A DNA stretch of 64,000 nt from a virus (IMGVR_UViG_2597490230_000001:25917-89916); one strand, 5' to 3'. Shown: positions 22,474 to 48,396, numbered from the stretch's first letter. Numbers and translations are program-made. Notes: generated from the sequence alone by a model not told the origin.

Positions 22474-22914
22474 TCACTGAGAAGAGCGCAGGAAATATGC
22501 TTGTTTTTCCAAATCAGCACACAGGTCCTGGAGGATGTTCTGAGTGACCGGATTATCGGCATCCCGAATCATAGAGTAGAGATGAGTAGCAACAGTCTCA
22601 AGAGTAGAAACCATACCACCCACCATGTCGTCTCGGTCAATTTCATGGTCGCCTTCACTAAACCACATACTCTCAAGATAGAGAGCTGCACGAGCATCAA
22701 CGGGCTCTTGTAAAGCTCGCATACGCTCTGCGATGGTGTCAATCCAGTCTTCAACTAAATCAGCGAGTCCATCAAAGGTGTGATGGTCGCCATAGAAACT
22801 TTCACCTGTAACATTCCAGTGATAGTTTTTAGCCTTAATCTGCAACAGTGTCAGGTTACCAACAAGTACCTGGAGTGATTCTGGTGCAGGGCGTTTTGGA
22901 CGTGCTCCTAACAT
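22474..22914 (-). CDS. dps: Dps-family ferritin-like DNA-protection protein
   Basis: KNYHWNVTG...F...HH pattern matching Dps ferroxidase-site residues. Confidence 0.75.
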   Translation of the reverse strand: MLGARPKRPAPESLQVLVGNLTLLQIKAKNYHWNVTGESFYGDHHTFDGLADLVEDWIDTIAERMRALQEPVDARAALYLESMWFSEGDHEIDRDDMVGGMVSTLETVATHLYSMIRDADNPVTQNILQDLCADLEKQAYFLRSSQ

Positions 22915-26809: not shown

Positions 26810-27223
26810 TTAGGAATTCTCTAAATACTCCACAGCTTTTCTCAATATCTCAATGCTATCCTTGAATTGTCCTAAACCAGCGTTACAAGTTCGACAGAGT
26901 ATGCCTCGGACTTTCAATGTTCCGTGACAGTGGTCGAGAACGCCAGCACCATCCAATTCATTTTTACAGATTTTGCATTTACCTTCTTGAGATTCTAACA
27001 GAGAATTAAACTCTTCTAAGGAGATACCATATCGAGTTTTAAGTCTCTTGTTCTTCAAGTATTCATCTTGATGGGCGTAAAGCCTTTTATGTCTTTCTGC
27101 CGAAGCAGCTCTATCACAACTTTTACATTGTGATTGATATCTGCCTCGACTTTTGACAAAGTAAAATTCACCTAAACCCTTCTCAGACCCACACTTGGTG
27201 CAAATCTTAGAATGGTCGGCTAT
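26810..27223 (-). CDS. HNH homing-type endonuclease
   Basis: Cys-rich HNH motif CKICKNELDGAGVLDHCHGTLKVRGILCRTCN. Confidence 0.75.
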   Translation of the reverse strand: MADHSKICTKCGSEKGLGEFYFVKSRGRYQSQCKSCDRAASAERHKRLYAHQDEYLKNKRLKTRYGISLEEFNSLLESQEGKCKICKNELDGAGVLDHCHGTLKVRGILCRTCNAGLGQFKDSIEILRKAVEYLENS

Positions 27224-29580: not shown

Positions 29581-30243
29581 TTACTCTGGAAGTTCGTTGT
29601 AGTAGTTAGGACGGTTGTGCAGACACCAGTCACCAGACTCTACACGATTTGCATCACCCTGGTCTTCATCAATGTGATAAATCCACGCCTTGAGGAATGA
29701 ACCATCTTCCATTTCAATTTCAACCTGGGTACGGTTGTAGAAGTTTGCAGTGCTGTCTTTTTCGTAATGACCCTCAAGGGCATCATACGCACCAGTAAGA
29801 CCTGCAAGAGGTGCTTCAAAAACATCTACAACAACAGGACAGCCTGATTTAGAAGCTGTCAGATTTACCGATGGGAAATATGCGCCTGAACCATAACGAT
29901 ACAGGTCGTAGTTCTCAACGGTTTTACCCAGACCTACGAACTCACCACCACCGCCAGCATTTACACGGAAGTTCTGCATACCACGACGCAGAGAACCATA
30001 AGTTGCGATGAAAGTTTTGCCCTCAGATGGGAAGATTACGTTTTTAACTACGTCAGTCATTTTCTTTTCCTGTTCAGGGATATAGTGTCGGAACTCGACA
30101 AAACGCCAAGTATTCATGTAATGCAGTGCGAGGCTTTTAGCCTCTTCGTACTGAAGGCCACTTCCAATTACGTGGCCATCTTCACCCTTGCCCATACGTC
30201 CAATGAGCATGAAGCGGTATTTTGGGTCGTTAAGATTTCCCAT
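29581..30243 (-). CDS. gamma-glutamyl cyclotransferase-like (AIG2/GGCT fold) protein with N-terminal extension
   Basis: FIATYGSLRRG motif. Confidence 0.45.
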   Translation of the reverse strand: MGNLNDPKYRFMLIGRMGKGEDGHVIGSGLQYEEAKSLALHYMNTWRFVEFRHYIPEQEKKMTDVVKNVIFPSEGKTFIATYGSLRRGMQNFRVNAGGGGEFVGLGKTVENYDLYRYGSGAYFPSVNLTASKSGCPVVVDVFEAPLAGLTGAYDALEGHYEKDSTANFYNRTQVEIEMEDGSFLKAWIYHIDEDQGDANRVESGDWCLHNRPNYYNELPE

Positions 30244-30404
30244 TCACAACCTTCCTACTATTGAGACTGTTGAGCAGGTTTCTGGAAAAATTAAAGGACA
30301 TTGTATCAAATACTCCGTCACCCTTAGGACCAGCTTTAACTGTTTTCTCTAAGTTTTCACGGAGCTTTCGCCCATTCTCTTCCATTTGAGCTTTGTGTTT
30401 TTCA

Positions 30405-30803
30405 TCAAACAGAGCCACTTTTACCCTCCGCCCAGATTGGCGACAGAGATTTCAAGAATGAAAACACTTCTTTATCACTCTTGAAACGTTTAATGCCTTT
30501 GTGACGTTGAATGCCTTCACCGACCGCTTGAATGTACTCAAACGCATCATCAAATGAGAAGAATTCAAACTCTTCACCACTGTATCGGTTCTTCGTTAAA
30601 CGCCAAGACAGTGTCGCATCGTAGTCACAATCAATGACGTACTCTGCGAATCGAATAAGGTCGCGGTAATAGCGATGGGTTAGTTCATCGGCGGCCTCTT
30701 CAAAATCACAGAAGTCATACGGCTCCTCTTCCAAGAAAGCATATAACTTACCCTGAATTACCAGAATTGTCATGTTAAAATCGCCGCAATGAATATAAAC
30801 CAA
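30405..30803 (-). CDS. hypothetical protein
   Basis: 132 aa ORF. Confidence 0.5.
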   Translation of the reverse strand: MVYIHCGDFNMTILVIQGKLYAFLEEEPYDFCDFEEAADELTHRYYRDLIRFAEYVIDCDYDATLSWRLTKNRYSGEEFEFFSFDDAFEYIQAVGEGIQRHKGIKRFKSDKEVFSFLKSLSPIWAEGKSGSV

Positions 30804-31157
30804 CCCCAGCCTTCACTTTTAGTTAGGGCTAGTACGAATGCCCCAAGGAGGGCTGCTAAAATGCAAATTGTACGCCAATCAGGCATCTTGACTTTTGACA
30901 TACACCCTCACTTGATGCTTACAGATACATCAAACACAGAAGTTGGACCATCGCCACAATTCATAATGTTACTACCAGTCATAACAACAACCTTTGTGAC
31001 TTTATGTTTTGCAGCGAATGCAGCAATGGCTTCCGTTAGTGCAGTATATGAATTCACATACCCAATATCATCACAAGACCTCATGTTTGGGGAAGTCAGG
31101 GAACAATACGGACCTTTACCGGCAATAACAGAATCAATCAGCTGCTTTTTGTTGATT

Positions 31158-31478
31158 TCATTCTTCGTCACAGTAGTGAACCTCAGCAACACGGGTCACT
31201 GATTTCTTAGTCGGGTTGATACTCGAACCTTGATACCAGCGAGAATCAGAAGAAAGTACATGACCAACCTCTGCTTCTTCAGCAGGCAGAATGGCCACAT
31301 TACAGGTTTCACCCATTGCATCTTTCATATGACTGAAAGGGTTCAGAGAGAAACGTTCGATTTTGTTACACACAGTAACTTTACAGAGACGCTGATTCTT
31401 CAGTTCATCTTTCAGGGATGCTGCTGAACCAAACGAAACGCCTAAACCAATTACTGCAACAAGTAAAGCCTTCTTCAT
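31158..31478 (-). CDS. secreted hypothetical protein
   Basis: N-terminal signal peptide MKKALLVAVIGLGVSFGSAAS. Confidence 0.5.
   Translation of the reverse strand: MKKALLVAVIGLGVSFGSAASLKDELKNQRLCKVTVCNKIERFSLNPFSHMKDAMGETCNVAILPAEEAEVGHVLSSDSRWYQGSSINPTKKSVTRVAEVHYCDEE
31165..31177 (-). repeat. copy of co-oriented 13-bp motif (ACTACTGTGACGA)
   Basis: Plus strand tcgtcacagtagt. Confidence 0.6.
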
Positions 31479-31682
31479 TTAATAATCACCTTTTCTTTTA
31501 AAGTTAGAACCTACGAGAGTCCCTCTACTTCTTATGGTAGAAGTAGATACTGAGAATTGATTTCCCGTCTTTGGATTAAAAACATCACAACTTGAAGACC
31601 AGCAATATAATATTACCAGATGTTGTCCAGTTTTACCATCCATTTTAACAACAAGCCCTGGGCACAGGAAAGTATCTTTCAT
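31479..31682 (-). CDS. hypothetical protein
   Basis: 67 aa ORF. Confidence 0.4.
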   Translation of the reverse strand: MKDTFLCPGLVVKMDGKTGQHLVILYCWSSSCDVFNPKTGNQFSVSTSTIRSRGTLVGSNFKRKGDY

Positions 31683-31892
31683 TCAACCTCCGAGCCACTG
31701 GCTCATTGTTTTTTCTATGTACTCACACTGAACGTCTGTTGCACCTGTGGAGAATTGTTCATGCAACATGCACTCCCAGAATGGGTTAAAAACCTCAATC
31801 CAAGTTGTTCCGTTTGAGAAGTGTGTTCTGTAGATAACACATCCATTGTTCCAAACAGAATCAATTGCTTTCTTCAGACGTTCATTTTCCAT
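31683..31892 (-). CDS. hypothetical protein
   Basis: 69 aa ORF. Confidence 0.4.
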   Translation of the reverse strand: MENERLKKAIDSVWNNGCVIYRTHFSNGTTWIEVFNPFWECMLHEQFSTGATDVQCEYIEKTMSQWLGG

Positions 31893-32159
31893 GAATACCT
31901 CAGATTACTATTTTAATAAATCTCTCACGAGAATCATCATAGGTGATTGAATCGATGCTGACATCATCTCTGTCAAGCTCTCTTGAGAAATCACCATCTT
32001 CATTGGTTACGATTACTGTTGCATCGCCTCCAACAGTTACGGACAGGTTCTCAAGTTTGATGATTAATTCATCCACGGTCATTGGTGGGCTCCTAGGGTG
32101 TCGCGCCCTACAGTTGTTGAAATTATCTCACTATGCTGTCCTACACAGGGAGTCCTAAT

Positions 32160-32245
32160 TGGTCGGGGAGTAGGAATCGAACCTACCTTGATTTCTTCGG
32201 AGCTTCACAGAGGTCTTGATTCGCCAACTACGTTGGTAACAAGTT
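32160..32245 (-). tRNA. tRNA-like element (T-arm plus acceptor 3' half plus CCA; no 5' half found)
   Basis: Minus strand reads GTAGGTTCGATTCCTACTCCCCGACCA in a 220-bp non-coding gap. Confidence 0.3.
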
Positions 32246-32317
32246 CCATACCGATGCCTGTCAATACCATACACCCGTATTTGACAAAGGCCACTCCGAA
32301 GAATGACCTTTAGCAAA

Positions 32318-32896
32318 TTACTCAGGCTTAGCCTTGAGCTTGACGACTCGTAACTGTTTGGTCTGAGCAGTGCGCTTGTATTCATCCAGAGAATCCGGAG
32401 ATACAGTCATAGCGCCCCAACCTTCAACACGAACATTAATACGAACCATCTTATCATACAACTCCTTGATTTGTGCTGGAGTTTCAATCTTATCACCCTG
32501 TACCTGGTTAACCACAACTACAGTTTTACCAGTGGATTTCAGACCTTTCTTCACAACACGAGCAGTTACATGATAACCAACAATTACCTCAGTTGTTTCA
32601 ATGTCAAGGAATTCATCAGTCAGGTCAATAATGTTGGCATCCTTACGACGACCAATATCATATACGCTGCCAACACGGAAATTGTCACCAATGTCATAGA
32701 CACGGATGCCAGTTAACTGAGAGCTTGCATATGCTTCTGCACTGCCATAGTTACGAACCATATAAGAATGCTGATTAGCAGACTGACGGACGTAGTTGCT
32801 ATGATAGGCATCATAGATTGACTTTAACTGAGCGAATACATCATCTTTCTCAGTGGAGATGGACATGATGTTGCCAGAATTAACAGTGATAAACAT
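32318..32896 (-). CDS. hypothetical protein
   Basis: 192 aa ORF directly downstream of a promoter-like motif. Confidence 0.55.
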   Translation of the reverse strand: MFITVNSGNIMSISTEKDDVFAQLKSIYDAYHSNYVRQSANQHSYMVRNYGSAEAYASSQLTGIRVYDIGDNFRVGSVYDIGRRKDANIIDLTDEFLDIETTEVIVGYHVTARVVKKGLKSTGKTVVVVNQVQGDKIETPAQIKELYDKMVRINVRVEGWGAMTVSPDSLDEYKRTAQTKQLRVVKLKAKPE

Positions 32897-32910
32897 GAGA
32901 ATATAGTTCC

Positions 32911-32932
32911 TTTATATTATGTGGATTTACTG
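32911..32932 (-). promoter_or_regulatory. conserved promoter-like motif CAGTAAATCCACATAATATAAA, 15 nt upstream of the RBS
   Basis: One of five or six near-identical copies; preceded by hairpin CTGTACAAagaTTGTACAG. Confidence 0.45.
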
Positions 32933-32953
32933 TACAATCTTTGTACAGGTCTA

Positions 32954-33475
32954 TTACAGACGAGTTACTACGTTTTCGTAAGTGGTTACAGCTTTGCGAG
33001 CCACTTTACCGTGCAGGCGACACCAGAAGAACTCACCGCCATGACGCTCAGCCATAGAGTGAGCAACAGCACGAGCCTGCTTTTCACTTTCCAGAACTAC
33101 ACGAGGTGGCAGGTTTGAAGTCGGACACCAGATGATGTATTTACCTGGAACATTATCGTCGTCTTTCTCTGGGATTGCTTTAGCACCATTGGGGCAAAGC
33201 TTCTCTTCTTTGTAAATGGACTTGCCATACAGGAAGCCCCAGAAGATATTATCACGGATGTGCTTCACAGTGACTGAGGCAGAGAGAAGTTTGTGATTGC
33301 GAACCTGGTGACCAGTGTGGTCAAGCAGTTTGAGATTAACACCAGAACCATCAGATTCAACCAGAATTACACCAGCTACACTGGAGCCTACGCGGATTTC
33401 TAAACGGTCACCACCACGAACAATGTGGTTTGTTGCGTCGCCGCGAGATGGAATCAGAGTGTGCTTAACGGTCAT
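32954..33475 (-). CDS. hypothetical protein
   Basis: 173 aa ORF. Confidence 0.5.
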   Translation of the reverse strand: MTVKHTLIPSRGDATNHIVRGGDRLEIRVGSSVAGVILVESDGSGVNLKLLDHTGHQVRNHKLLSASVTVKHIRDNIFWGFLYGKSIYKEEKLCPNGAKAIPEKDDDNVPGKYIIWCPTSNLPPRVVLESEKQARAVAHSMAERHGGEFFWCRLHGKVARKAVTTYENVVTRL

Positions 33476-33681
33476 TATTTACCTACCTTGGTAACTGCTT
33501 CGATGATGTGAGAAGGGAATGATGCAACCAACTGCATGTTGGATTGACCTTTATCGTTCACACCGCTTTCATAGAACTTGGTGTGAGCCGGGTCAATTTG
33601 AACCATATCCGCATGAAATGTCTGAGCTTTACGGTCAACCTCAGATTTCAGGAACTCTACTTTGTACTTAACCTTTGCCAT
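33475..33681 (-). CDS. hypothetical protein
   Basis: 68 aa ORF. Confidence 0.4.
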   Translation of the reverse strand: MAKVKYKVEFLKSEVDRKAQTFHADMVQIDPAHTKFYESGVNDKGQSNMQLVASFPSHIIEAVTKVGK

Positions 33682-33870
33682 TGTTAAACCTCAACGACTG
33701 ATTTGATTTGCTCTAACGGATAGAGCGCCACGGTATCATAGCGGCCTTCACCACTACGAATTGTTTCTTTCTCCAGGAGAACCTGCACTGATGCAGAATC
33801 TGTCCAGAGTTTAGTGCCGTTATGACGAACCTTCTCGTCATTGTACAGTGTTACTTCGTAGACTTTCATG

Positions 33871-34098
33871 TTACGACCACGCTGGTGTCATGTCCTTCAA
33901 GGCAAAGTCACGAACCTGGTCTTTATCCACGTCGAGCGCCTTCAGGAGCCACTGGTCCTCAGGATGCCACTCCGTGTGGCCGAACCAGATGTTGATAGGG
34001 ATGATTCTGCGTTCAGCAGTTTCACCACGATAGTTAGTATAGGTGACCCGGTGTGGAACACCGAGCACCATCAACTTAGGACGGTACTCGTTTGCCAT
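33871..34098 (-). CDS. hypothetical protein
   Basis: 75 aa ORF. Confidence 0.4.
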   Translation of the reverse strand: MANEYRPKLMVLGVPHRVTYTNYRGETAERRIIPINIWFGHTEWHPEDQWLLKALDVDKDQVRDFALKDMTPAWS

Positions 34099-34418
34099 TA
34101 GAAAGGTATCTTGTCGTCAAAGCCAATCATAGACTGAGCAATACGCTCAATCTCCCTGTCACGCATCTGCTGACGGAAGCACATTTTGTCATATATTTCA
34201 ATGACCTTTCGTACTTTATCATCGATGGTGATTTTAGGCTTCACATCGTCAATGAAATGAAGCCTTCGGAAAGGCATGACCAAGTACACAAACTTCGCAG
34301 CTTCAAGATTAGTGCGAAGGCATACTCGGTCACCATTGCTCAACTTATAATACACAGAGGTGCTCCAGAATTGTTGCGTCTGATGCCGCGACTGGAACCT
34401 CCCAGCCAACGATTTCAA
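34098..34418 (-). CDS. hypothetical protein
   Basis: 106 aa ORF. Confidence 0.45.
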   Translation of the reverse strand: MKSLAGRFQSRHQTQQFWSTSVYYKLSNGDRVCLRTNLEAAKFVYLVMPFRRLHFIDDVKPKITIDDKVRKVIEIYDKMCFRQQMRDREIERIAQSMIGFDDKIPF

Positions 34419-35604
34419 AGTGAGACATGTTTACATCGTACTTACCAACAGTGCGCTCACCGTCAACAGTGATTAAATAAACACCGTTGTTTTGGAGAGT
34501 TGGAGTGCTATTTGCCAACTGAACAGCACGTTCGCCATTACGACGGCTCTGGTTGCTTTGGGTACGGTTTACAGGAGTTGCCCGTAAGTTTTGTGCAGAA
34601 TCGCCGGACAGCGCAAAGTTTTCATCAGCAGCAACTTCTGGTTCAGGAGCCGGTGCTGGCGCTGGGGCAGGTGCAGCTTCACGCTGTAAAGTCTGACGAA
34701 CTGTACGTGGCTGGGCAGGAGGTGTGTTGTTCACTTCACGCTGAAGTTCGTCCAGAGAAGGGGCAGGCATCACCTCTTCAACTTCCTGACCGTTCAGGAG
34801 ACGCAGCACGTTTGATGCGAAGGTTGTCAGGTTAGTACCAGTCATACCCGGAGCAGTGTTCACTTCCAGAACCCACGCTTCTTCACGGCGAGTGATTACG
34901 TCAACTGCACCATAATCCAGACCCAGAGCCTGAATAGCTTTCAGCGCTTCACGCTTAGCTTCTTCATTAAGCTGAGCCATTTGGGTGGCATAAATCCAGC
35001 CGGTATGGTAGTTGCGAACTACGCCAGAATATTCCGGCATGTCAGCGTAACCATCACGACGCTTTTTCTGCTGAACGTAGGTGATTTTACCTTTCATGAC
35101 GTGAATACGGAACTCACGACGGTCTGCGGTAATACCACGAGTGTACAACTGGGCGCTTACCGCTGATTCAGAAGTCTGGACACCACCGATGTTTCCCAGG
35201 CTGGAAGGGTCGCGGTGACAGGCAACGATGCCCTCACCTGAATGGCCCTGGAGTCTTGTGCGGGCATAGACAAGTTCACCGTTGTCAACCCACTCTTGGG
35301 CGGTTGTGCGTGAAGTGGTGAAGTCGACAGTTTTGACTCCAGCATCTGCAAAAGTTCGGAAAGCGGTTGATTTATTGGAAGCGTTGCCAATGCGATGTCC
35401 TGGGTTGAGAACGGTAGCACGACCGATTACGTGAGAAGGCATGTTGGAATCACCATAGTTAATGATGATATCACCAGCACGGCCTGTGAAATTGGAGTTG
35501 TTGCGACGAATTTTAATCAGGTTGTCACCCTGGGCAGCCACTTCAACTTTCAGTGCATTTACAGTGTCAGAAGCCGCGTGAGACCAGATTGCTAAACGTG
35601 CCAT
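34345..35604 (-). CDS. ATP-grasp family ligase (RimK-like) with Pro/Ala linker and C-terminal extension
   Basis: REFRIHVMKGK and GLDYGAVDVI...VLEVNTAPGM ATP-grasp signatures; APAPAPAPAPEPE linker. Confidence 0.6.
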   Translation of the reverse strand: MARLAIWSHAASDTVNALKVEVAAQGDNLIKIRRNNSNFTGRAGDIIINYGDSNMPSHVIGRATVLNPGHRIGNASNKSTAFRTFADAGVKTVDFTTSRTTAQEWVDNGELVYARTRLQGHSGEGIVACHRDPSSLGNIGGVQTSESAVSAQLYTRGITADRREFRIHVMKGKITYVQQKKRRDGYADMPEYSGVVRNYHTGWIYATQMAQLNEEAKREALKAIQALGLDYGAVDVITRREEAWVLEVNTAPGMTGTNLTTFASNVLRLLNGQEVEEVMPAPSLDELQREVNNTPPAQPRTVRQTLQREAAPAPAPAPAPEPEVAADENFALSGDSAQNLRATPVNRTQSNQSRRNGERAVQLANSTPTLQNNGVYLITVDGERTVGKYDVNMSHFEIVGWEVPVAASDATILEHLCVL

Positions 35605-35644
35605 TTTGTATTTACCTTTTCATCTATTGGTTGGGAAGAATCTA

Positions 35645-35668
35645 CATTATAAGAGGCTCCGAAGAACC
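35645..35668 (-). terminator. hairpin terminator with TTCG loop
   Basis: agaggttc-ttcg-gagcctct on the minus strand. Confidence 0.4.
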
Positions 35669-35681
35669 TCTGAAATATAGA

Positions 35682-35933
35682 CTACGGACCTTTCAAGGCA
35701 AGAAGGCTTGCGACGATATCACGGTTCTTGGTTTTAAGACCCGCAATTTCATCATCGATAAGGCTGTAGTGATAGGTGAGCATCATAAGTGAAAGTTCGC
35801 CATTCGTATGGGAAATCATCTGATTGACGTAATACAACTTCTCTTCAAGAAGCTCACCAATACGCTTGAGGTTGTCTTTGCAGAGAGCATCACTCTCTGC
35901 TTTCAACTCCTTCATTACATCCTTATCGGACAT
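35682..35933 (-). CDS. hypothetical protein
   Basis: 83 aa ORF. Confidence 0.45.
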   Translation of the reverse strand: MSDKDVMKELKAESDALCKDNLKRIGELLEEKLYYVNQMISHTNGELSLMMLTYHYSLIDDEIAGLKTKNRDIVASLLALKGP

Positions 35934-36163
35934 TAGACCTTGATACCTTTTAGTCGGCAGTAATCGGCCAGCATCATGTGGATTGACACTGGATAAGGGA
36001 TGGCCACTTTGACTCCCTTCTGCTCTTCATGGAGACGGACTTGGTAGTCACGTACCGCTCGGAGCATATCTGAACCAAAATCGGTCATGGGCACTTTACG
36101 TACTACAACCGGGTTGTCCAGGCGGAGCATTTTAACTTCTTTCATTGAATTATCCATATTCAT
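35933..36163 (-). CDS. hypothetical protein
   Basis: 76 aa ORF. Confidence 0.45.
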   Translation of the reverse strand: MNMDNSMKEVKMLRLDNPVVVRKVPMTDFGSDMLRAVRDYQVRLHEEQKGVKVAIPYPVSIHMMLADYCRLKGIKV

Positions 36164-36172
36164 CTTTACCTA

Positions 36173-38122
36173 TTACTTGTTGTGGCTTGGAACCATTCCC
36201 AGTTCCAATTTTTTAGCGCAGGTTTCACAGCAAGGTGTGCTACCTACGAATTCTGTCGTTGCTGCCTTTTTGAATGGAATTTTATCATGACACCAAGAAC
36301 AGGTGTTCATTTCATTCCACTGAGACAGCGTGACCTTCATCCCATTTTGAAGAGTTTTACGATACGTCAGAATTGGACGAACGTTACCCTTCGGTTTGTT
36401 AGCGTATTTGTTTGCAAAACACTGCAAACAGACACACTCTTTTTCTGACTCTGCATCAACTGGGAGTTCAGTCGAACATTCGATACACTCGAAGCGAAGT
36501 TCTCCCAGTTGAGGCTCCCCCTTTGATTGTGATTCCTTTGGTTCAATGCCGTCAATAAGACCGGCATCTACGCAGGCGTCACAGTAGGCGAAGTCACGGA
36601 ACACAGTGGCATCAGCCATGAAGTCGAAGGGGATTGGAGAGCCACAATTTCCGCAGGAATTTAAACAATCGTGTCTCTCCCACTCCTTTTTTGTGTAGAC
36701 GCTACCATCTCTGGTTACGTCCATTTCGTTACCGTCTGATTCCTCTTCTTCCATTTCTGGGTCTTGAGGGACGTCAACATCATCAGGAGTGTGTGTCTGA
36801 GCAATCAGCGCAGTTCCACGAACAGTTGATGTAATGATATGTTCCATTTCATCATCTTCATCAAAATCATCATCCAAAGGAATTGGAGTGACTTTGACAG
36901 TTTCGTCACGAACATCGCTGACAATCAGAGTCAGAATGTAGTTGGCTTCATAAGCCGAGATAACTTTACCAGAGTACAGTTGCTCACCGCCATAGATGTT
37001 TTTATCAACACCATGACCCTGAACTTCGATGTACTCACCTTCACCAATCCAGCCGGTCAGTTGACCACGCTCAGGATTTTTCGGATACGGTTCGAACTGG
37101 AACGCTTCGAACTTAATACGGTCGCCGATTACAGCATCAACACCGTGGCCCTGAAGCATCTCATTTAACTGATGATGCTTTTCGAGCGTGGCTCTCATCT
37201 CTGATGTTTGATGAGTGTTGCTAGAAACGCGGCTTGGATAGCTGTTAGCCCCGTGCGCATTTCGGCTGGCTCGCCAATCGTAGTCGTCGTAGTCGTCGTC
37301 ATACGAGTTATAACCGCCCGTATTCCAGTTGCGATAGTTGTAAGAATAGGTGGAGCGAAAGGTTGGAAGCTCATGCTTCACCTCCTCCCTAAACTTCAGC
37401 CCATCGGCGGTATCAAAGATATACTGAACACCAACTTCGAGTTCAAACTCTTTTTCAATCGTCGGATTGAACTTCCGGCGAGACATAATCCATTTAATCA
37501 TGTCTTTTTCGGAAGCACCATACCAGTCACCGGTATTGGTTTTCATCATGTAGAAAGGACGCTCATCGTTTCGGATGAAGTTCAGAGTGTTCTCTTTAGC
37601 ATCATGCCAAACCAGAACGAATGCACCATGCAATTTCTTGATGGTTTCAGCGATACCGATTGTAGCAATCGAATAGCAGACGTTTTCACTGTCTACTTCG
37701 AAACGCTTGTGGTCTGGTAACAAGGACTGGTCAACCAGTGAACCGTTGTGAACCAGGGTGATATGCTCATGTTGGAAAGGGTGAGCGTTTTTGTCGTTAA
37801 CCGCACCGGCAGTTGCATAACGGTTGTGACCAACCATGAACTTCGGATTGATTGAAGACGTCGTTGTTGCCTTCGTAACCGGATTAACATTTTTGGTTTT
37901 GTGTTCTTTAACATCATCCCAGATTTGGGAACGAACAAACATGTCACCTGGGATTGCTTTCTTTGCAACCTTAATGAAAGCTTGTTCATTATACGGCTTG
38001 TAATAAGCCATGACGCCAGTTGAGTGCTCACCACGGAAAGTGTCAGCAAACAACATGTTTTCAAAACGTTCGATATTAGCCGACGAAAGTGTCACGCCGC
38101 CCACAAATACGATTCCACACAT
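36173..38122 (-). CDS. class II glutamine amidotransferase (Ntn, N-terminal Cys) fused to a long Cys-rich C-terminal region
   Basis: MCGIVF start, GHNRYATAG...NAHPF and LVHNG motifs; C-terminus carries more than six CxxC pairs. Confidence 0.7.
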   Translation of the reverse strand: MCGIVFVGGVTLSSANIERFENMLFADTFRGEHSTGVMAYYKPYNEQAFIKVAKKAIPGDMFVRSQIWDDVKEHKTKNVNPVTKATTTSSINPKFMVGHNRYATAGAVNDKNAHPFQHEHITLVHNGSLVDQSLLPDHKRFEVDSENVCYSIATIGIAETIKKLHGAFVLVWHDAKENTLNFIRNDERPFYMMKTNTGDWYGASEKDMIKWIMSRRKFNPTIEKEFELEVGVQYIFDTADGLKFREEVKHELPTFRSTYSYNYRNWNTGGYNSYDDDYDDYDWRASRNAHGANSYPSRVSSNTHQTSEMRATLEKHHQLNEMLQGHGVDAVIGDRIKFEAFQFEPYPKNPERGQLTGWIGEGEYIEVQGHGVDKNIYGGEQLYSGKVISAYEANYILTLIVSDVRDETVKVTPIPLDDDFDEDDEMEHIITSTVRGTALIAQTHTPDDVDVPQDPEMEEEESDGNEMDVTRDGSVYTKKEWERHDCLNSCGNCGSPIPFDFMADATVFRDFAYCDACVDAGLIDGIEPKESQSKGEPQLGELRFECIECSTELPVDAESEKECVCLQCFANKYANKPKGNVRPILTYRKTLQNGMKVTLSQWNEMNTCSWCHDKIPFKKAATTEFVGSTPCCETCAKKLELGMVPSHNK

Positions 38123-38189
38123 GGGAAAGTTTCCTCTTGAAACATTTAAAGAAGGGGCTTTATGCCCCTATGATGGACGATAGTTCGTC

Positions 38190-39893
38190 TCAGAAGTTGG
38201 CTGTATCTTCGTCGTCTTCTTCGTCGTAACCTTCGTACTCTTCATCATCGTCTTCAAAAGAAGCGCGACGAGGAACAGGTTGAGGTGCGTTACGATTTGA
38301 GTAGAACTCACGATACAACTGGCGGTGTTGACTTGGCAATTGACGTGGAACGAACCAGTCAGATTCAAAAGTAATGCCAACTTCGCGGCACTTCTCTTGC
38401 AGTTCAGCCAACCATTCGAATGTGATTACATCCGGGGCGTTATCAGGGAACAGCCACATGCCGTCAGTTTTACGACGAAGTTCGCGCTGAAGGTGGTTCA
38501 CGTATGGCGATTCAACCGTCACACGCATACGGCGCGATGTATCATCAGTTTCGTTACGAACATTGTGGACGTAAACATTACGACGACGACACTTAGCCAG
38601 AGAAACCACATCGTGAGCCAGCTTATAACCAATCTCCATGTCTTGCTCAAAGTCCGGTAAGACTTTAGGCAGACCTTTGCGAATCGCTTGGTGAAGCGGA
38701 ATCGTCATGAGATATTCGATGAACGATGAATCATCGCCCTCGAAGTTCATTGCCAACTCTTTCAGTGAGAGGAAGCGGTTAACCAGTCGAATCAAGCGAC
38801 CTTTACGCCACTTAGCTTCACTGATGCGGAACTCAATGGAACCGAAGCTCTGCATTGGCAGCAAGTTCAAGGACGTGTACTTGTCCCAGTTTGAAGCGAT
38901 GCTACGCATGAAGTTCTGGTCGTCTTGTTCCCACGCACGAGCCAGAATAGCCAACTGGTCTTGGGCAAAGCCCAAAGCAACACAGAAGTTATTCTTGTAA
39001 CGATGCCACCCTGAACATTTGAACAGGATACGCTCGTAAACAATGTACGCCAGAATCATTCGCTTCAACTGCGGAGCAGTCATGTTACGAACGTCTACGT
39101 GGACGTGAGTTGAACAACGCCAAGACTCATCCGGAGAGTTCGTGAACAGGAAGCTGTCGATTTCAATCGCAGCATTGTACAGGTCGCGTCCGCCCCACGG
39201 AGATGAGCAGACAAATTCCATTCCGGAATTACGCAGAGAACCATCTGACTTAGCTTCCCAATATTGGAAGTTAGGGGGGTTGGAGGTCATGTTCTCCAAC
39301 TCAATCTCAACCCCAGCGAGATTCTGACCCACAATCAGTGGGTGACTCTCAATTGTCGGATACGACGCTCGTTGTCCAAAAACCTGAGCAACAGTAACCA
39401 TATTATTATCAACCTCTACGTTACCAGATATGAAGTTTTCCTGATTAACACTTCCAAAGCTTCCGTTGCCTTGGCGAGGGTGGTCTTCATCAGACCAGTG
39501 ATAGCCACCACCAACAGCACCAGGTGCATCATCAATTGGCTCTGCGTGGTCGGCTTGGAAGGGGTTGGGAACTAAGCCACCAGAACCCCCACCAAAAGCG
39601 TGTGCAAATTGGGCATAGCGACTGATTCCACCGTTAGTACGTGAACGTGATGAGACAGTCTGAACTGTACGTTGACCGGATTCAGCTTCTGCCCTCATAC
39701 GCTCTTGACGTTCTTGGATTCGAGCCAAATCCCTGTCCCACATTGCCTGCCACTCATTTACCGCCCTTGTGGCATCTTCTGTTGGCGGGGCAGGTGTTGG
39801 AGCAGAAGCCTCACGAGCCTCTGCTTCTAAACGAGTCCGGTCATTTTCAGACCGGATATGAGCCATTAACTCGTCGAAACTACGGTTTGGCAT
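38190..39893 (-). CDS. amidoligase (COOH-NH2 ligase, Amidoligase_2-like) with long N-terminal low-complexity extension
   Basis: GVEIELE...DGSLRNSGMEFVCSSP...WRCSTHVHVDV motif block. Confidence 0.5.
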   Translation of the reverse strand: MPNRSFDELMAHIRSENDRTRLEAEAREASAPTPAPPTEDATRAVNEWQAMWDRDLARIQERQERMRAEAESGQRTVQTVSSRSRTNGGISRYAQFAHAFGGGSGGLVPNPFQADHAEPIDDAPGAVGGGYHWSDEDHPRQGNGSFGSVNQENFISGNVEVDNNMVTVAQVFGQRASYPTIESHPLIVGQNLAGVEIELENMTSNPPNFQYWEAKSDGSLRNSGMEFVCSSPWGGRDLYNAAIEIDSFLFTNSPDESWRCSTHVHVDVRNMTAPQLKRMILAYIVYERILFKCSGWHRYKNNFCVALGFAQDQLAILARAWEQDDQNFMRSIASNWDKYTSLNLLPMQSFGSIEFRISEAKWRKGRLIRLVNRFLSLKELAMNFEGDDSSFIEYLMTIPLHQAIRKGLPKVLPDFEQDMEIGYKLAHDVVSLAKCRRRNVYVHNVRNETDDTSRRMRVTVESPYVNHLQRELRRKTDGMWLFPDNAPDVITFEWLAELQEKCREVGITFESDWFVPRQLPSQHRQLYREFYSNRNAPQPVPRRASFEDDDEEYEGYDEEDDEDTANF

Positions 39894-40471
39894 TCTGGGT
39901 ACTCCTGACTCACTGAACGAAGCAAATGAGCCGCCTCTGGGAACAGCTCAATGCCTTCCCCAACGAACTTACCGATGTACACGTCTTTGTAACGCAAATC
40001 ATCGTCAGTTTTAAGGAAGACGTTGCCAGACACTTCCGGATACTTGCGTTCACTGAAGAACTCAGCGATTGTATCCCAATCGAACACTGGCATTCCGCAA
40101 ACACGGCGACTTGTCAGACCTTTCTTGGTCGAACGGTTCGCACGATACGAAACCCAATAGTAACGATTACGCCACTTAATGTAGCGAGAGTCTGGAAGTT
40201 CCAGAACCAACTTCTCGTCAGTGTGAGGAACTGAACGGTTTTCGTAATTACCGTTCGGATAACGAACTGTTCCGTGGAACACCAGAGCATCCAGTGCATC
40301 ATCAGAGAAACCCAAAGTCTCACGGTCAGATGCACTCATTGCTCGCAGGTTCATCACATTGTTATCGTGAGTTACCGCTTCAATTTGAAACGGCAACAAA
40401 CCATGTTCAGGGTCACGATAACCGACGTAAGTCGAACAGTAATACATTCCGAAATCGTCGGATAAAGCCAT
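39866..40471 (-). CDS. hypothetical protein in the amidoligase cluster
   Basis: 201 aa ORF. Confidence 0.5.
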   Translation of the reverse strand: MALSDDFGMYYCSTYVGYRDPEHGLLPFQIEAVTHDNNVMNLRAMSASDRETLGFSDDALDALVFHGTVRYPNGNYENRSVPHTDEKLVLELPDSRYIKWRNRYYWVSYRANRSTKKGLTSRRVCGMPVFDWDTIAEFFSERKYPEVSGNVFLKTDDDLRYKDVYIGKFVGEGIELFPEAAHLLRSVSQEYPECQTVVSTS

Positions 40472-40481
40472 CTTGTGCTCC

Positions 40482-41285
40482 TTAGCAGATGTTCAACATA
40501 CGGATGAACTGTTCCGCCATGTGTTTGTCATTGTTGTTGATTGCTTTCTGAATATCTTCAGGGTTAACAATCGACACCATCTCCATGTAATCACCCTGAG
40601 ACATGTCGAACGCTTTATGAGCCTGTTCCCAAGCCCAGCGACGATTGTCGTCATTGGCAATCCAGAAGTTAGACAGAACACGATATTCAATACCGTACTC
40701 TTTGAAACGGCAAGCACCTGCTTTGCCATACAGCTCTTTACGACGGTCGTCTCCGTCCAGAAGAAGTGCAGGCAGACCCAGATAGTAATCACACATTACG
40801 CCCATAACCTTCTGAAGTTCAGAAGTCACAGGAACCACACCGCTTACGCCAATGTGGATGTGACCACCTGCTGTACGGAGGCCTGGGTCAGCAGCAGCCG
40901 GTTTAGGGTTACGCATACCAGTCAGAGCATTGTAATCCGGCTCACAACCGAATACGAATGCGTCTTTGTGGAATGATAATAACTCTTCCGGCGTGAAGAT
41001 ATGAGAGCTCACACCGAGAATAACTTCGTGACCAACTTCTGCAACAGCTTCTTGACATAAGTCAATACCGCGCTTAATGTTGTTATTGAAGCCGTCAAAA
41101 TCACCATGCGGGTTGGTATCAAACTCAACCAGCACGTTATCTTCCTGAATACGAATGTCGTCCGTGACTACCTTTTTGTTGTACTTGTCCGCTCCCAGCA
41201 GACCTGCAACTGAACTGATAAGTTTGCTGCTCACATTACGAGTAAACAGTTCCGGGTCAGTTGCCAACAAAATGACTTTAGACAT
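40482..41285 (-). CDS. second amidoligase-like protein (putative)
   Basis: VEFDTNPHGD...AGGHIHIGV block resembling the THVHV motif of the 567-aa neighbour. Confidence 0.35.
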   Translation of the reverse strand: MSKVILLATDPELFTRNVSSKLISSVAGLLGADKYNKKVVTDDIRIQEDNVLVEFDTNPHGDFDGFNNNIKRGIDLCQEAVAEVGHEVILGVSSHIFTPEELLSFHKDAFVFGCEPDYNALTGMRNPKPAAADPGLRTAGGHIHIGVSGVVPVTSELQKVMGVMCDYYLGLPALLLDGDDRRKELYGKAGACRFKEYGIEYRVLSNFWIANDDNRRWAWEQAHKAFDMSQGDYMEMVSIVNPEDIQKAINNNDKHMAEQFIRMLNIC

Positions 41286-41299
41286 TTCTATATCCTTAA

Positions 41300-42373
41300 T
41301 TAAAGACGTGGTGGAATGTTGTTATCGGTACAGAATTGAGCAAGACGCTCAATAAGAAGCTCAGCCTTCTCATCGCTTAAGCTCTCCTGTAGATATGTGA
41401 TATCATCTAAGAAAAACTTAAACCCAAGAACACTGTTCCATTGTTGAATTTCTTCATCAATGGGAACATCCCCTGGAATACTGAACACATCAATCATATG
41501 CCAGTATTTACGAGGACACATTGGTACTCGGTCTTCACGACCCCAGTTTTGAAGCTCAGCAGCAACATCGCGGCTCTTCGTCGTGAAGTTCCAAAGGAAC
41601 CCTTCATAACGTTCGTCGAACCAGATTTCGTTTCTGCGGAACCACTCTTCGCGGAAGTAGCCCTTAGACTCACTCCACTTGTGCTGCTTCCACCGGAAAG
41701 CTTCCAGATTCTGACTCATAAGGTTCAGGAACCCTTGACGACCCAGCGTATCAGGACTACACCAGTTATATTCACCGGTTTGTGTGTTCTGAATTACAGC
41801 TTTAGGAGCACGACCGAAAGTACCCGGCATCACATCAATGTAAACCATGTGAGCCACAACAGCCGCGAAACGAGGACGATAACCTTTATTCAGTAACCAA
41901 CGATAACCCATTGCGAAGTTACCGTATTGAGCTAAGTTACGGAAAAGGTAGAGAGCCAACATGATTTGGTCGGCAGTGTGGTCTTTGATATGCACACGAA
42001 TGCCGCCGATGAGGGGGTGGACAGTTACAAGACCCGCCAGCATTGGCAAGTCTTCAACCAAGTCCTTCATCATGTTCAGGAAGTTACGATTTGCGGTTTT
42101 ACGAGCATCGGTTCGAGATACGTCGCTAGGCCAGTCACGAGTCGAATAATCAGACTGGTCGTAGCACCAAATCGGATGAATCCCATGAAGAGAGTCATAC
42201 AAAATGAACGCATGGTCAGAACCCTCACGGTCTAACAGACTGTGTACGTTGCTTCCAGAGAAGCTGTACGGTCTCTGCTCATGCCAACGGGCGTTTCCCA
42301 TAACCCCGAAGCAAATGGATTCGTTTGAAAAACGGTTCCCATCCTTGAAAACCACACTGTAACGTACTGACAT
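41300..42373 (-). CDS. hypothetical protein, paralog of 42375..43286 (candidate base-modification transferase)
   Basis: Shared pattern M..L(F)RNL..Y..F...Y..L..G...PFA.V.A..Y between the two adjacent ORFs. Confidence 0.4.
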   Translation of the reverse strand: MSVRYSVVFKDGNRFSNESICFGVMGNARWHEQRPYSFSGSNVHSLLDREGSDHAFILYDSLHGIHPIWCYDQSDYSTRDWPSDVSRTDARKTANRNFLNMMKDLVEDLPMLAGLVTVHPLIGGIRVHIKDHTADQIMLALYLFRNLAQYGNFAMGYRWLLNKGYRPRFAAVVAHMVYIDVMPGTFGRAPKAVIQNTQTGEYNWCSPDTLGRQGFLNLMSQNLEAFRWKQHKWSESKGYFREEWFRRNEIWFDERYEGFLWNFTTKSRDVAAELQNWGREDRVPMCPRKYWHMIDVFSIPGDVPIDEEIQQWNSVLGFKFFLDDITYLQESLSDEKAELLIERLAQFCTDNNIPPRL

Positions 42374-42374
42374 T

Positions 42375-43286
42375 TTATTCCCCTTTATTATCTTTCAGTA
42401 CTTTCTCCCACACCGCCTGAGCAAGCTTCAGGAATTCACTTTCAACAAAGCGATGATGGTTTCCAAAACTGTTGTTGATAGTCAACAGTTCAGTTTTATC
42501 CCAATCTTCCGGGATGTTTTCCAGAGACGTTAACATCGTTGTATCAGTCAGAGTACAACGACGACCGGTACGTGGGTTAACAGGAGCAGAACCGTCCCCA
42601 TAGTTACCATAACGACCGTAGCCTTGCTCAGTGTCACCGAACACACCCTGGTAGATGTGGCCTGTTTCACCTTCGAGCATGTTGATTAAATCAGCGACAG
42701 TTACTTCGTCACCAAATACACACTCGTCTCCACCTGAACCCTGCCAGAACGAGAATTCAGACGAGCCGAAGCTCTTGTTGCACTGATACGTCATTGCCAT
42801 AACAAAAGCAAACGGAACTTCAAAACCACCGGCACGGAGGATGTTGTACGAATTACCGAATGAGCTATACTCAATCAGGTTGCGCAGCATCATCGCACCC
42901 ATCACAGTAGTTTGCATGTTTTGGTCAGCCAGTGGGATATAAATGTCACCGGTATCAAAACCGCCAAGTTCCAGACCTGGATAACTTTCGTCTTCATCCA
43001 GAATCTTAAACCCGCTGAAATACTGCGGGAATGCTGCCAGAATTTCTGGAAGCTCTTTGTTAATCAGTGGGGTTCCATCACACCCAGATGGACCAGGCGA
43101 CCAAACCATATGGCTTAACTCACCAGAAGAGAAACCACTGAGAGGACCGGCTACATACTCGTCCTCTTCGTCGTCCCACTGTTCGTTATCTTCATCCCAC
43201 TGTTCGATGTAGGATAAAAATCCAAAGCAAGGTTTTGCAAACTCTTCGCTCGCACCTCGCTTATTAAACACCGTAGCCATTACCAT
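42375..43286 (-). CDS. hypothetical protein, paralog of 41300..42373
   Basis: See the paralog entry; acidic N-terminus. Confidence 0.4.
   Translation of the reverse strand: MVMATVFNKRGASEEFAKPCFGFLSYIEQWDEDNEQWDDEEDEYVAGPLSGFSSGELSHMVWSPGPSGCDGTPLINKELPEILAAFPQYFSGFKILDEDESYPGLELGGFDTGDIYIPLADQNMQTTVMGAMMLRNLIEYSSFGNSYNILRAGGFEVPFAFVMAMTYQCNKSFGSSEFSFWQGSGGDECVFGDEVTVADLINMLEGETGHIYQGVFGDTEQGYGRYGNYGDGSAPVNPRTGRRCTLTDTTMLTSLENIPEDWDKTELLTINNSFGNHHRFVESEFLKLAQAVWEKVLKDNKGE
42899..42911 (-). repeat. copy of co-oriented 13-bp motif (ACTACTGTGATGG)
   Basis: Plus strand ccatcacagtagt. Confidence 0.55.
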
Positions 43287-46499: not shown

Positions 46500-46721
46500 T
46501 TAACCCTCCCTTTCGACGTTACCGCTCACTTTTACTTTGAAATGCTTCTTCAAAGTTTCAATGGACATGTAAGCCAGTACAACATCGATGAAAGCACCGA
46601 GCACACTGGCATTACGAACATCGTAAATAAACAGGAAAGTCAGAATAACTAAAAACACCATATGTGCATACGGTGTGTTCAGGAAATCTGCAACCTTATT
46701 CAACTTAGCTTTCCAGCTCAA
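46500..46721 (-). CDS. small membrane protein
   Basis: 73 aa with two hydrophobic helices. Confidence 0.45.
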   Translation of the reverse strand: MSWKAKLNKVADFLNTPYAHMVFLVILTFLFIYDVRNASVLGAFIDVVLAYMSIETLKKHFKVKVSGNVEREG

Positions 46722-48388: not shown

Positions 48389-48396
48389 TTAGTGAC

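Follow-up and report, generated by a model that had tools for sequence, protein, structure and literature searches.

Predicted amide-bond module of Salmonella phage 7-11: conserved gene order, enzymes and candidate targets

When a single region of a phage genome encodes an amidotransferase, several ligase-like proteins and a cyclotransferase, the question arises of whether these enzymes share a pathway and, if they do, what that pathway modifies. The window analysed here, a stretch of 64,000 nucleotides, matches Salmonella phage 7-11 (NC_015938) at 100% identity, and a preliminary description of it had presented the cluster as a candidate hypermodification system, by analogy with phages whose thymidine is modified through 5-hmdU, while cautioning that sequence cannot name the substrate, a caution that we uphold.

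The locus and its predicted enzymes

All seven ORFs singled out in the preliminary description were recovered at the positions it gave, on the minus strand (Table 1), together with an eighth member, gp104, and two conserved small genes, gp100 and gp101, that its list had left off. The single-strand run of about 14 kb that it described holds for strand, which is uninformative because the whole early/middle region of 7-11 is minus-strand, but not for contiguity: the contiguous module occupies 34345-43286, and the gamma-glutamyl cyclotransferase (GGCT) gene, gp086, is set apart from it by ~4.1 kb occupied by small ORFs that do not share the module's conservation. The contents of this insert vary among relatives (A24, Privateer and LUZ24 compared), and it gave no Pfam matches save one weak WYL, in a scan that covered 47 proteins of the window, with some small ORFs outside it.

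Table 1. Genes of the 7-11 module and the adjoining insert, with coordinates in the window
Gene	Coordinates	Strand	Length (aa)	Description
gp107	42375..43286	-	303	First of paralog pair; CFG-motif family, KP-CFG-FLS; ortholog of phiEco32 gp88
gp106	41300..42373	-	357	Second of paralog pair; ortholog of phiEco32 gp87
gp105	40482..41285	-	267	Predicted phiEco32-type COOH-NH2 ligase type 2 (glutamine-synthetase-like carboxylate-amine ligase)
gp104	39866..40471	-	201	Between the two ligase genes; conserved, non-enzymatic-looking
gp103	38190..39893	-	567	Predicted Amidoligase_2-type carboxylate-amine ligase, core ~165-470
gp102	36173..38122	-	649	Predicted class II (Ntn, Cys2) glutamine amidotransferase (GAT), residues 1-240
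gp101	35933..36157	-	74	DUF7195; PF23825, E 4.4e-36
gp100	35682..35933	-	83	Small helical protein between GAT and ATP-grasp genes; position kept in relatives
gp099	34345..35604	-	419	Predicted RimK-like ATP-grasp ligase, core ~1-280
gp098	34098..34355	-	85	Overlaps 3' end of ATP-grasp gene; module membership uncertain
gp087-gp097	30230..34098	-		About 11 small ORFs inserted between ATP-grasp and GGCT genes; outside conserved module
gp086	29581..30243	-	220	Predicted gamma-glutamyl(amine) cyclotransferase (AIG2/GGACT), domain 70-214

Three of the products are predicted ATP-dependent carboxylate-amine ligases, gp105 and gp103 with a glutamine-synthetase fold and gp099 resembling RimK. The first of these, previously noted as a second, shorter amidoligase-like protein, is placed by profile search among the phiEco32-type COOH-NH2 ligases (PF14395, E 1.1e-9, scoring 38.3 bits where the cut-off is 25; phrog_3815, E 1e-108); it is 48% identical to phiEco32 gp86, it has tblastn matches in 303 phage records, and an alignment from 9 phages gives DPE, E54, GC.PD, H142.H144 and E200-Y-R202 as invariant. 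The second, gp103, matches the PHROG 'amidoligase' family phrog_7469 (E 6e-90) and lies slightly below the Pfam cut-off for Amidoligase_2 (PF12224, E 2.2e-4, 21.6 bits against 22), with G.E.E.E, H263.H265 and E354-F-R356 invariant; its N-terminus is extended by low-complexity sequence, and its acidic C-terminal tail, which ends in Phe, is lineage-specific in a comparison of C-termini. A search for solved structures related in sequence to gp103 or gp105 found none. The third, gp099, matches the RimK ATP-grasp family (PF08443, E 4.7e-7), its closest relatives in the PDB are the RimK structures 7qys and 7qyr, and its matches to TIGR00768 rimK_fam (E 4e-11) and MptN (E 3e-11) are both far under the family cut-offs. 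It shares the ATP-grasp subfamily fold with RimK, the ribosomal protein S6 poly-alpha-glutamate ligase, but differs in falling short of the equivalog thresholds (42.8 versus 143.4 bits for TIGR00768; 25.7 versus 331 for PRK10446) and in carrying a proline/alanine (AP)n linker after the core, followed by a small C-terminal beta domain. It is predicted to be a RimK-like superfamily member only, and not an S6 glutamate ligase equivalog.

The remaining two enzymes, gp102 (an Ntn class II amidotransferase) and gp086 (a GGCT), are predicted to act on gamma-glutamyl or glutamine amides. In gp102 the Pfam match is confined to residues 1-240 (GATase_6, E 5.8e-15, with GATase_7 and GATase_4 also matching), and there are weak NCBIfam matches to the N-terminal domains of GlmS, PurF, AsnB and EgtC. 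Residues 235-649 are without a Pfam match; here a beta-rich middle domain is followed by three CxxC...CxxC zinc-ribbon-like motifs. This Cys-rich half had been called unusual, but its Cys motifs are kept in an alignment of six relatives and are not peculiar to 7-11. For its part, gp086 matches PF06094 (GGACT/AIG2, E 5.5e-17) and phrog_2520 (E 3.7e-41), contains an LEG motif and has an additional N-terminal domain of 60 aa (phrog_2381). Pfam and PHROG thus agree with the families first assigned (GGCT/AIG2, ATP-grasp, class II GAT, Amidoligase_2), the motifs quoted for them are present (MCGIV at the gp102 N-terminus, STHVHVDV in gp103, GGHIHIG in gp105, YGSL in gp086), and catalytic-type motifs are kept in all five enzymes, as judged across 9-13 homologs.

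The two adjacent proteins gp106 and gp107, suspected earlier of being paralogs, are true paralogs: BLASTP relates them weakly (E 0.14), but family profiles make the relationship firm, with reciprocal HMM matches of ~1e-5 to 1e-10 and an hhalign probability of 97.7% (E 2e-12, 203 columns). They belong to a small family that is without a Pfam entry, has a conserved N-terminal CFG motif and is of phage origin wherever the source is traceable. Searches of Pfam, NCBIfam and PADLOC gave no match for gp107, which matches phiEco32 gp88 by HMM (E 3e-6); in gp106, C21, G23, R145, N146, G238, Y239 and R241 are invariant. The pair may form an accessory heteromeric component with a conserved Cys and Arg. 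The gp104 gene overlaps gp103 by 28 nt, and its product is predicted to fold as tandem small beta-barrels (Tudor/SH3/Sm-like) of an adaptor type. The gp101 gene always directly follows the GAT gene (as phiEco32 gp82 and LUZ24 gp20; orthologs aligned by eye), and gp098 ends in ...GFDDKIPF, resembling the SSB C-terminal tip, with orthologs of the same position and tail in A24, Privateer, PKM.Lu.22.1 and BUCT695.

A published module with a conserved gene order

The 7-11 genes have one-to-one orthologs in phiEco32 (gp77-gp88), and their order also matches LUZ24 gp14-22. A gamma-glutamyl amide cassette of the phiEco32/LUZ24 type was reportedly described by Iyer et al. in Mol Biosyst in 2009. In print the cassette is labelled "gamma-glutamyl amide / putative peptidoglycan modification" (PMC5498523, PMC11945000), both sources using the name 'peptidoglycan modification cassette' and the former listing 7-11 as a carrier; PMC4819975 and PMC5498523 cite Hardies et al. 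2013 for it. The 7-11 cluster is a copy of this already published module, carried by many lytic phages, and is not new; the earlier link to predicted Gn-AT II, COOH-NH2 ligase and GGCT systems was correct, whereas the combination with an ATP-grasp enzyme, which had seemed unusual, is part of the conserved cassette (PMC5498523). Like the phiEco32 and LUZ24 cassettes, the 7-11 copy has COOH-NH2_lig type 2, Amidoligase_2, GAT-II, RimK-like ATP-grasp and GGCT in a shared order, but it is expanded: another 4 kb of small ORFs precedes its GGCT gene, its amidoligase is extended at both termini, and its GGCT carries one further domain at the N-terminus. In the accessible papers the cassette comprises five to seven genes, and no discussion of the paralog pair or gp104 was seen there.

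The common order, which runs from the paralog pair through the COOH-NH2 ligase, a protein of ~200 aa, Amidoligase_2, GAT, a small protein and the ATP-grasp enzyme to, further on, GGCT and then primase/helicase, is held in A24, Privateer, PKM.Lu.22.1, BUCT695, phiEco32, LUZ24 and Bas93, with variant orders in CW02 and crAss-like phage cr108_1; in LUZ24 the ATP-grasp gene is followed immediately by that for GGCT. Besides phiEco32, LUZ24, CW02 and the crAss-like phage, the syntenic module is present in ~300 other phage records, and it recurs, its genes often overlapping, in Grimontviridae, Kuravirus, Bruynoghevirus, Zobellviridae and Crassvirales. Checking neighbours in related phages, as had been proposed, showed this gene set recurring in one order across at least five phage families, a grouping far beyond chance. 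A search of 185,579 species genomes gave 30 loci of the COOH-NH2 ligase family, mostly MAG contigs and several of phage-genome size; this distribution suggests that the family is essentially phage-only, and the module as a whole appears confined to phages. Among 20 other loci, each 5 kb or longer, 17 have GAT, 15 Amidoligase_2 and 14 ATP-grasp.

Proposed pathway and favoured target

We read the 7-11 region as a phage module running a multi-step amide-bond pathway, with a macromolecular or polymer-bound host target favoured, and give this reading a probability of about 50%. The pathway would operate inside infected cells, in the early or middle phase of infection, the ligases activating carboxylates as acyl-phosphates and coupling these to amines, whether amino acids or ammonia. 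Amidotransferase gp102 would either feed glutamine-derived ammonia to its neighbour gp103 or hydrolyse a gamma-glutamyl amide in the manner of EgtC, and the GGCT would release the gamma-glutamyl group as 5-oxoproline, like BtrG in butirosin biosynthesis, so that a peptide-like or amide adduct would be assembled and trimmed on the target. A small HMM detected no GGCT close to the core of the 30 MAG loci, so that trimming may be missing from some carriers.

A 'protect and remove' logic of this kind is known from butirosin, with BtrJ (ATP-grasp) and BtrG (GGCT-like), and from ergothioneine, with EgtA (a GCL-type ligase) and EgtC (a class II GAT hydrolase, to which gp102 has its weak match). The shared feature is an ATP-dependent glutamyl ligase paired with a GGCT or Ntn-GAT that removes the glutamyl group later; those systems differ in serving bacterial small-molecule biosynthesis, and the 7-11 module is without a carrier protein, PLP enzyme or other tailoring enzyme.

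A macromolecular or polymer-bound target is favoured over a free metabolite and over DNA bases because of the predicted non-catalytic binding parts, namely the Tudor/SH3-like barrels of gp104, the zinc ribbons at the end of gp102 and the additional beta domain in gp099. It would be a protein carboxylate or a peptidoglycan stem peptide. The peptidoglycan idea derives solely from analogy, MurT/GatD, AsnB/LtsA and Ddl being the analogues behind it. Published work proposes the stem peptide. A nucleic-acid or replisome target would fit the zinc ribbons, the Tudor-like barrels and the unvarying replication-gene neighbourhood equally well.

Competing explanations and significance

It is possible, if rather unlikely, that the enzymes instead make or recycle a free gamma-glutamyl compound, for example a gamma-glutamyl polyamine, a peptide resembling glutathione or some other short non-ribosomal peptide, in which case host metabolism would be adjusted or a signalling or inhibitory molecule produced. 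Small-molecule members are well known in all five enzyme families: GCL and PuuA are glutamine-synthetase-fold ligases, free gamma-glutamyl amines are substrates of GGCT enzymes, and gp099 scores about as well against the cofactor glutamate ligases MptN and CofF as against RimK. Some marine phages have the amidoligase and GAT pair only, treated as auxiliary metabolic genes (PMC10580990). Unlike host-borrowed genes of that class, however, those of the core ligase family hardly occur in cellular genomes, and small-molecule enzymes normally have no need of adaptor-type domains such as those of gp104 and the GAT.

We consider it improbable that the module decorates a phage DNA base or nucleotide precursor with an amide-linked group for protection from restriction. 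In its 5-hmdU-derived form the idea is not supported. Thymidine hypermodification clusters (ViI, M6, SP10, PhiW-14) are likewise multi-enzyme phage clusters near replication genes, and in some viral contigs amidoligase or amidotransferase domains adjoin them (PMC8989533), but their defining genes were not found here: there is no ThyA-like dUMP hydroxymethylase or TET/JBP in the proteins scanned or the record annotation, no kinase family match for a 5-hmdU kinase (5-HMUDK) among the 47 window proteins scanned, and no aGPT-Pplase-type transferase, gp106 and gp107, once suggested for that role, not being aGPT-Pplases. The sole thymidylate enzyme found is ThyX (PF02511, E 1e-45), with a dCTP deaminase alongside, pointing to an ordinary route to dTMP, and nothing found links the module to thymidine hypermodification. 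Separately, gp033, annotated 'dNMP kinase', is actually a DUF3310 protein.

Other observations bear on DNA modification in general. In every lineage examined, genes for primase/helicase and nucleotide metabolism adjoin the module, its GAT bears zinc-ribbon motifs, and Gordonclarkvirinae, all carriers, resist RM systems with no known modification pathway (PMC11990801), although the BASEL authors propose another candidate, dCTP deaminase plus a nucleotidyltransferase (PMC11990801), the latter being absent from 7-11. DNA of 7-11 contains dADG, an amide with no known phage enzyme to make it, but only in trace amount (~0.02% of G, by LC-MS targeted at 7-deazaguanines; PMC6884629), and most carriers are without DpdA; of the 16 restriction enzymes tried on DNA of the LUZ24-like carrier U17, 11 cut it (PMC11945000).

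Less probable still is Pup-like tagging, with the pupylation enzymes PafA/Dop as the nearest known counterpart, in which a small module protein would be attached, via its C-terminal or gamma-carboxylate, to lysines on proteins of the host or the phage and the GGCT or GAT would de-tag; a comparison of C-termini in gp100 and gp101 orthologs revealed no tag with a conserved C-terminal Gln or Glu. A chance neighbourhood of unrelated auxiliary genes, which the 4 kb offset of gp086 and the long same-strand block might suggest, is refuted by the order conserved in the five lineages and 20 further contigs.

New here are the characterisation of the gp106/gp107 CFG family, the predicted gp104 adaptor fold and the protein with an SSB-type tail after the ATP-grasp gene. 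Our literature search found no published experiments on the module's activity or product. Two evolved derivatives (rounds 15 and 30) of a trained Pseudomonas phage carry missense changes that in both cases hit the amidoligase and GAT genes, though at different positions (PMC11450229), which argues that the module affects infection success.

Composition and distribution of the module

The gene cluster lies in Salmonella phage 7-11 (NC_015938 / HM997019; Moazamivirus, Grimontviridae), with 100% identity across the 13.7-kb region, window positions being record positions minus 25,916. The genes covered, gp086 to gp107, are all on the minus strand, and because the same is true of the entire early/middle region of 7-11 (record 30.5 kb to ~77 kb), the same-strand run mentioned in the preliminary description is uninformative. 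Every open reading frame listed there was recovered at its coordinates, and the enzyme family calls (GGCT, ATP-grasp, class II amidotransferase (GAT) and amidoligases) hold in Pfam and PHROG searches. In 7-11 the GGCT gene is separated from the contiguous block by ~4.1 kb of small non-conserved ORFs; gp101 is a DUF7195 member.

Features of the module and its surroundings in the window
Feature	Window position	Strand	Length	Assignment or observation
gp032	4871-5575	-		annotated queuine tRNA-ribosyltransferase; lies 24 kb away
gp033	5818-6093	-	91 aa	annotated 'deoxynucleoside monophosphate kinase'; sole match DUF3310
gp048	11792-12565	-	257 aa	no Pfam match; C-terminus ...AFDDDIPF
gp056	15401-16153	-		Sir2-family protein
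gp071	21603-22103	-		Macro-domain protein; annotated only as Tk.4-like
gp073	22474-22914	-		annotated 'DNA binding protein'; Dps/ferritin-like, E 2e-12
gp084	27207-29009	-		primase/helicase; C-terminus ...RDDSRPF
gp086		-	220 aa	GGACT/AIG2, E 5.5e-17; YGSL and LEG motifs
gp098	34098-34355	-	85 aa	overlaps 3' end of ATP-grasp gene; C-terminus ...GFDDKIPF
Contiguous block	34345-43286	-
gp099		-	419 aa	RimK-type ATP-grasp, E 4.7e-7; rimK_fam 4e-11, far under family cut-off; closest solved structures RimK
gp102		-	649 aa	class II amidotransferase, residues 1-240 only; N-terminus MCGIV
gp103		-	567 aa	Amidoligase_2, 21.6 bits vs 22-bit cut-off; PHROG amidoligase 6e-90
gp103 C-terminus	38190-38300	-		strongly acidic tail
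gp105		-	267 aa	phage COOH-NH2 ligase type 2, PF14395, E 1.1e-9
gp119-gp120	46718-49281	-		NAMPT and PRPP synthetase
gp122	50263-50967	-		annotated 'hypothetical'; ProQ/FinO RNA-chaperone domain, E 4e-9

As judged from sequence, the module comprises three predicted ATP-dependent carboxylate-amine ligases and two predicted gamma-glutamyl/glutamine amide-cleaving enzymes, with catalytic-type motifs intact, which are co-inherited almost only in phages. Residues of the glutamine-synthetase-fold type (acidic metal ligands, H-x-H and E-(F/Y)-R) are kept in 9-13 aligned homologs, and this conservation makes the ligase enzymes look active. Sequence and profile searches of solved structures found no relative of either gp103 or gp105. 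PADLOC returned no matches, a promoter/terminator scan performed no better than on shuffled sequence, and no tRNA was found within 28-46 kb, although a T-arm-like hairpin is present.

A tblastn search with gp105 retrieved 303 phage records. A characteristic gene order recurs: paralog 1, paralog 2, COOH-NH2 ligase, a ~200-aa protein, Amidoligase_2, GAT-II, one or two small ORFs, ATP-grasp, GGCT and primase/helicase, with GGCT next to ATP-grasp in some carriers but not all. This order is found in Cronobacter A24, Proteus Privateer, phage PKM.Lu.22.1, Aeromonas BUCT695, phiEco32 (gp88 down to gp77), the BASEL phage Bas93 and Pseudomonas LUZ24 (gp14-gp22), with variant arrangements in Salinivibrio CW02 and the crAss-like phage cr108_1; the neighbours thus show conserved synteny over multiple phage lineages. 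Features that had been thought unusual are conserved in the module. The ATP-grasp enzyme and the paralog pair both belong to its usual gene set. The Cys-rich C-terminal half of gp102 consists of three CxxC...CxxC zinc-ribbon-like motifs following a beta-rich middle domain; these motifs are kept in orthologs from Grimontviridae and from phiEco32, and LUZ24 retains them in part.

Among 185,579 species, each represented by one genome, only 30 loci encode the COOH-NH2 ligase, nearly all of them on MAG contigs, several of which are phage-genome-sized. The 20 loci with at least 5 kb of sequence have GAT (17/20), Amidoligase_2 (15/20) and ATP-grasp (14/20) as neighbours, and the core is therefore a five-gene block, gp105-gp104-gp103-gp102-gp099, found almost only in phages, to which GGCT and the paralog pair are often added; an HMM search placed no GGCT near the core ligase in the MAG loci. 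The sole type 2 homolog on a large, cellular-sized contig (locus L036, 7983-8939 of a 546-kb contig from a Bacteriovoracaceae MAG) is without GAT, Amidoligase_2 or ATP-grasp partners. Three ligase loci (L011, L013 and L015) with 55-63% identity to the 7-11 protein lie on 537-1119 bp scaffolds of an isolate assembly of the actinobacterium Herbiconiux daphne, and are most likely phage contamination of that assembly. In CW02 (locus L010, 2206-6692), five small paralogs (gp4, gp6, gp7, gp11 and gp13), all ending in ...(I/L)LE(E/D)N(V/L), are interspersed among the module ligases, of which they could be substrates or adaptors.

In later papers, Iyer et al. 2009 and Hardies et al. 2013 are credited with recognising the system. 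One paper names it a 'peptidoglycan modification cassette' and counts phiEco32, Salmonella phage 7-11, LUZ24, PaP3 and CW02 among the phages that conserve it (PMC5498523), and a 2025 paper still uses the name 'putative peptidoglycan modification module' (PMC11945000). Our literature search found no experimental test of the module, and no substrate report or solved structure since the 2009 prediction. The cluster has thus already been published as a predicted system, with 7-11 as a named carrier, and its detection here is the re-identification of a known cassette.

The paralogous pair gp106 and gp107

That the 357-aa and 303-aa proteins, gp106 and gp107, are paralogs is borne out by their family profiles, which find each other reciprocally at ~1e-5 to 1e-10 (hhalign 97.7%, E 2e-12 over 203 columns); such profiles are required, since BLASTP between the two is not significant (E 0.14). 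The family is small, with 132 representatives at E<1e-3 among 1.84 billion proteins, and repeating the word-indexed homolog search with a mixed alignment gave almost no gain (14 proteins). Wherever the origin of a member could be traced (INPHARED, BFVD, named clusters), it was a phage. Bar a few multi-domain outliers, the family lacks any Pfam domain, and the suggested kinship with aGPT-Pplases does not hold.

Near-invariant residues (gp106 numbering) are C21, G23, R145, N146, G238, Y239 and R241. The N-terminal C-F-G motif also occurs in LUZ24 gp14 and gp15, at the same gene position, and in one protein of a cr108_1 pair at that position, the other carrying CFA; the cr108_1 proteins are paralogous to each other (BLASTP 4e-11). 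Neither HMM searches nor hhalign linked the LUZ24 or cr108_1 proteins to the 7-11 pair, to which they are tied only by the CFG motif and gene position, and CF[GA] occurs within the first 80 residues of 12/839 ORFs as background. In the MAG loci, no CFG motif was found 5' of the ligase gene. Comparison by hhalign of the paralog family with the gp103, gp104 and gp105 families, all in shallow alignments, gave no signal; gp103 against gp105 also gave none, and with such alignments the method is unfit to test a shared GS fold.

Acidic C-termini and neighbouring genes

Several proteins encoded around the module end in acidic tails. The E. coli SSB C-terminal tip is DFDDDIPF, which the ends of gp098 and its orthologs match. 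The orthologs, located identically in A24, Privateer, PKM.Lu.22.1 and BUCT695, end in ...DD(D/H/E)(I/C)PF, a tiny SSB-tail protein thus having a fixed place beside the RimK-like C-terminal ligase. The protein gp048 is probably the phage SSB. The acidic amidoligase tail is shared by 7-11, A24 and PKM.Lu.22.1, has an aromatic last residue in 7-11 (...DEEDDEDTANF) and A24 (...EDDEDDSSPDFW), is absent from Privateer, BUCT695, phiEco32 and LUZ24, and resembles the tails of T7-type replisome proteins.

An NAD/ADP-ribose theme also runs through the window, formed by gp119-gp120, gp056 and gp071. The NAMPT/PRS pair resembles the pathway of NAD+ reconstitution that phages are reported to use against host defence; A24 and Privateer also carry the pair upstream of their modules. 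Elsewhere, gp073 and gp122 have domains that their annotations do not name, and the kinase annotation of gp033 looks wrong from its only domain match.

Candidate targets and significance

The ligases would make acyl-phosphates and then couple them to amines, the Ntn-amidotransferase gp102 may supply ammonia to its neighbour gp103 or hydrolyse a gamma-glutamyl amide, and GGCT would remove a gamma-glutamyl group as 5-oxoproline, the net outcome being an amide or peptide-like adduct that is assembled and trimmed. The barrels of gp104, the zinc ribbons of the GAT and the additional domain of the ATP-grasp enzyme are adaptor-type parts, and they make a macromolecular or polymer-bound target more likely than a free metabolite; such a target could be a protein carboxylate or a peptidoglycan stem peptide.

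A role for the module on DNA or the replisome, to which its invariable position adjoining replication genes would point, is improbable. The enzyme assignments of the preliminary description stand, but not the 5-hmdU-derived thymidine hypermodification it raised, since the defining genes (a ThyA-like hydroxymethylase, TET/JBP and a P-loop kinase) are absent from the 47 window proteins scanned and from the record annotation. DNA of U17, a LUZ24-like carrier, is cut by 11/16 restriction enzymes (PMC11945000), and the BASEL authors attribute RM resistance by preference to a dCTP deaminase and a nucleotidyltransferase instead (PMC11990801); 7-11 encodes ThyX and a dCTP deaminase, and that nucleotidyltransferase is missing from it. 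We consider it similarly unlikely that the module is the missing covalent-modification/anti-restriction function of phiEco32-like phages, placing an amide-linked group on DNA or on a replisome/SSB-type acidic C-terminal tail, with the CFG-motif pair as a new target-selecting enzyme family; if true, this would account for the broad RM resistance seen in carriers as well as for the module's fixed place beside replication genes.

Targeted LC-MS of 7-11 DNA detected only trace dADG, at ~0.02% of G, linked to a separate DpdA gene, gp032, with no phage enzyme known to make it (PMC6884629). The gene is given as the 7-11 DpdA in the list of Hutinet et al. 2019 (PMC6884629), and its product has no Pfam match at E<=0.001. 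Conversion of 7-carboxy-deazaguanine to dADG was rejected as a general function of the module because of this trace level and because the DpdA list names 7-11 and SE131 among recognised module carriers, with no phiEco32- or LUZ24-type phage among the matches listed.

An adduct on a macromolecular or polymer-bound target remains our preferred reading. Some 300 sequenced lytic phages, among them therapy candidates against Pseudomonas, E. coli, Salmonella, Proteus and Cronobacter, carry the module, which amounts to 8-10 genes and roughly 9 kb and is kept even in small 45-kb genomes. During host-range training of a Pseudomonas phage, two evolved derivatives (rounds 15 and 30) both acquired missense changes in the amidoligase gene and in the GAT gene, at positions that differ between them (PMC11450229). 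Together with retention in small genomes, this suggests that the module influences infection success. The identity of its target would decide between cell-wall remodelling, protein tagging and DNA modification by these phages, and might also account for the RM resistance of Kuravirus-type phages.
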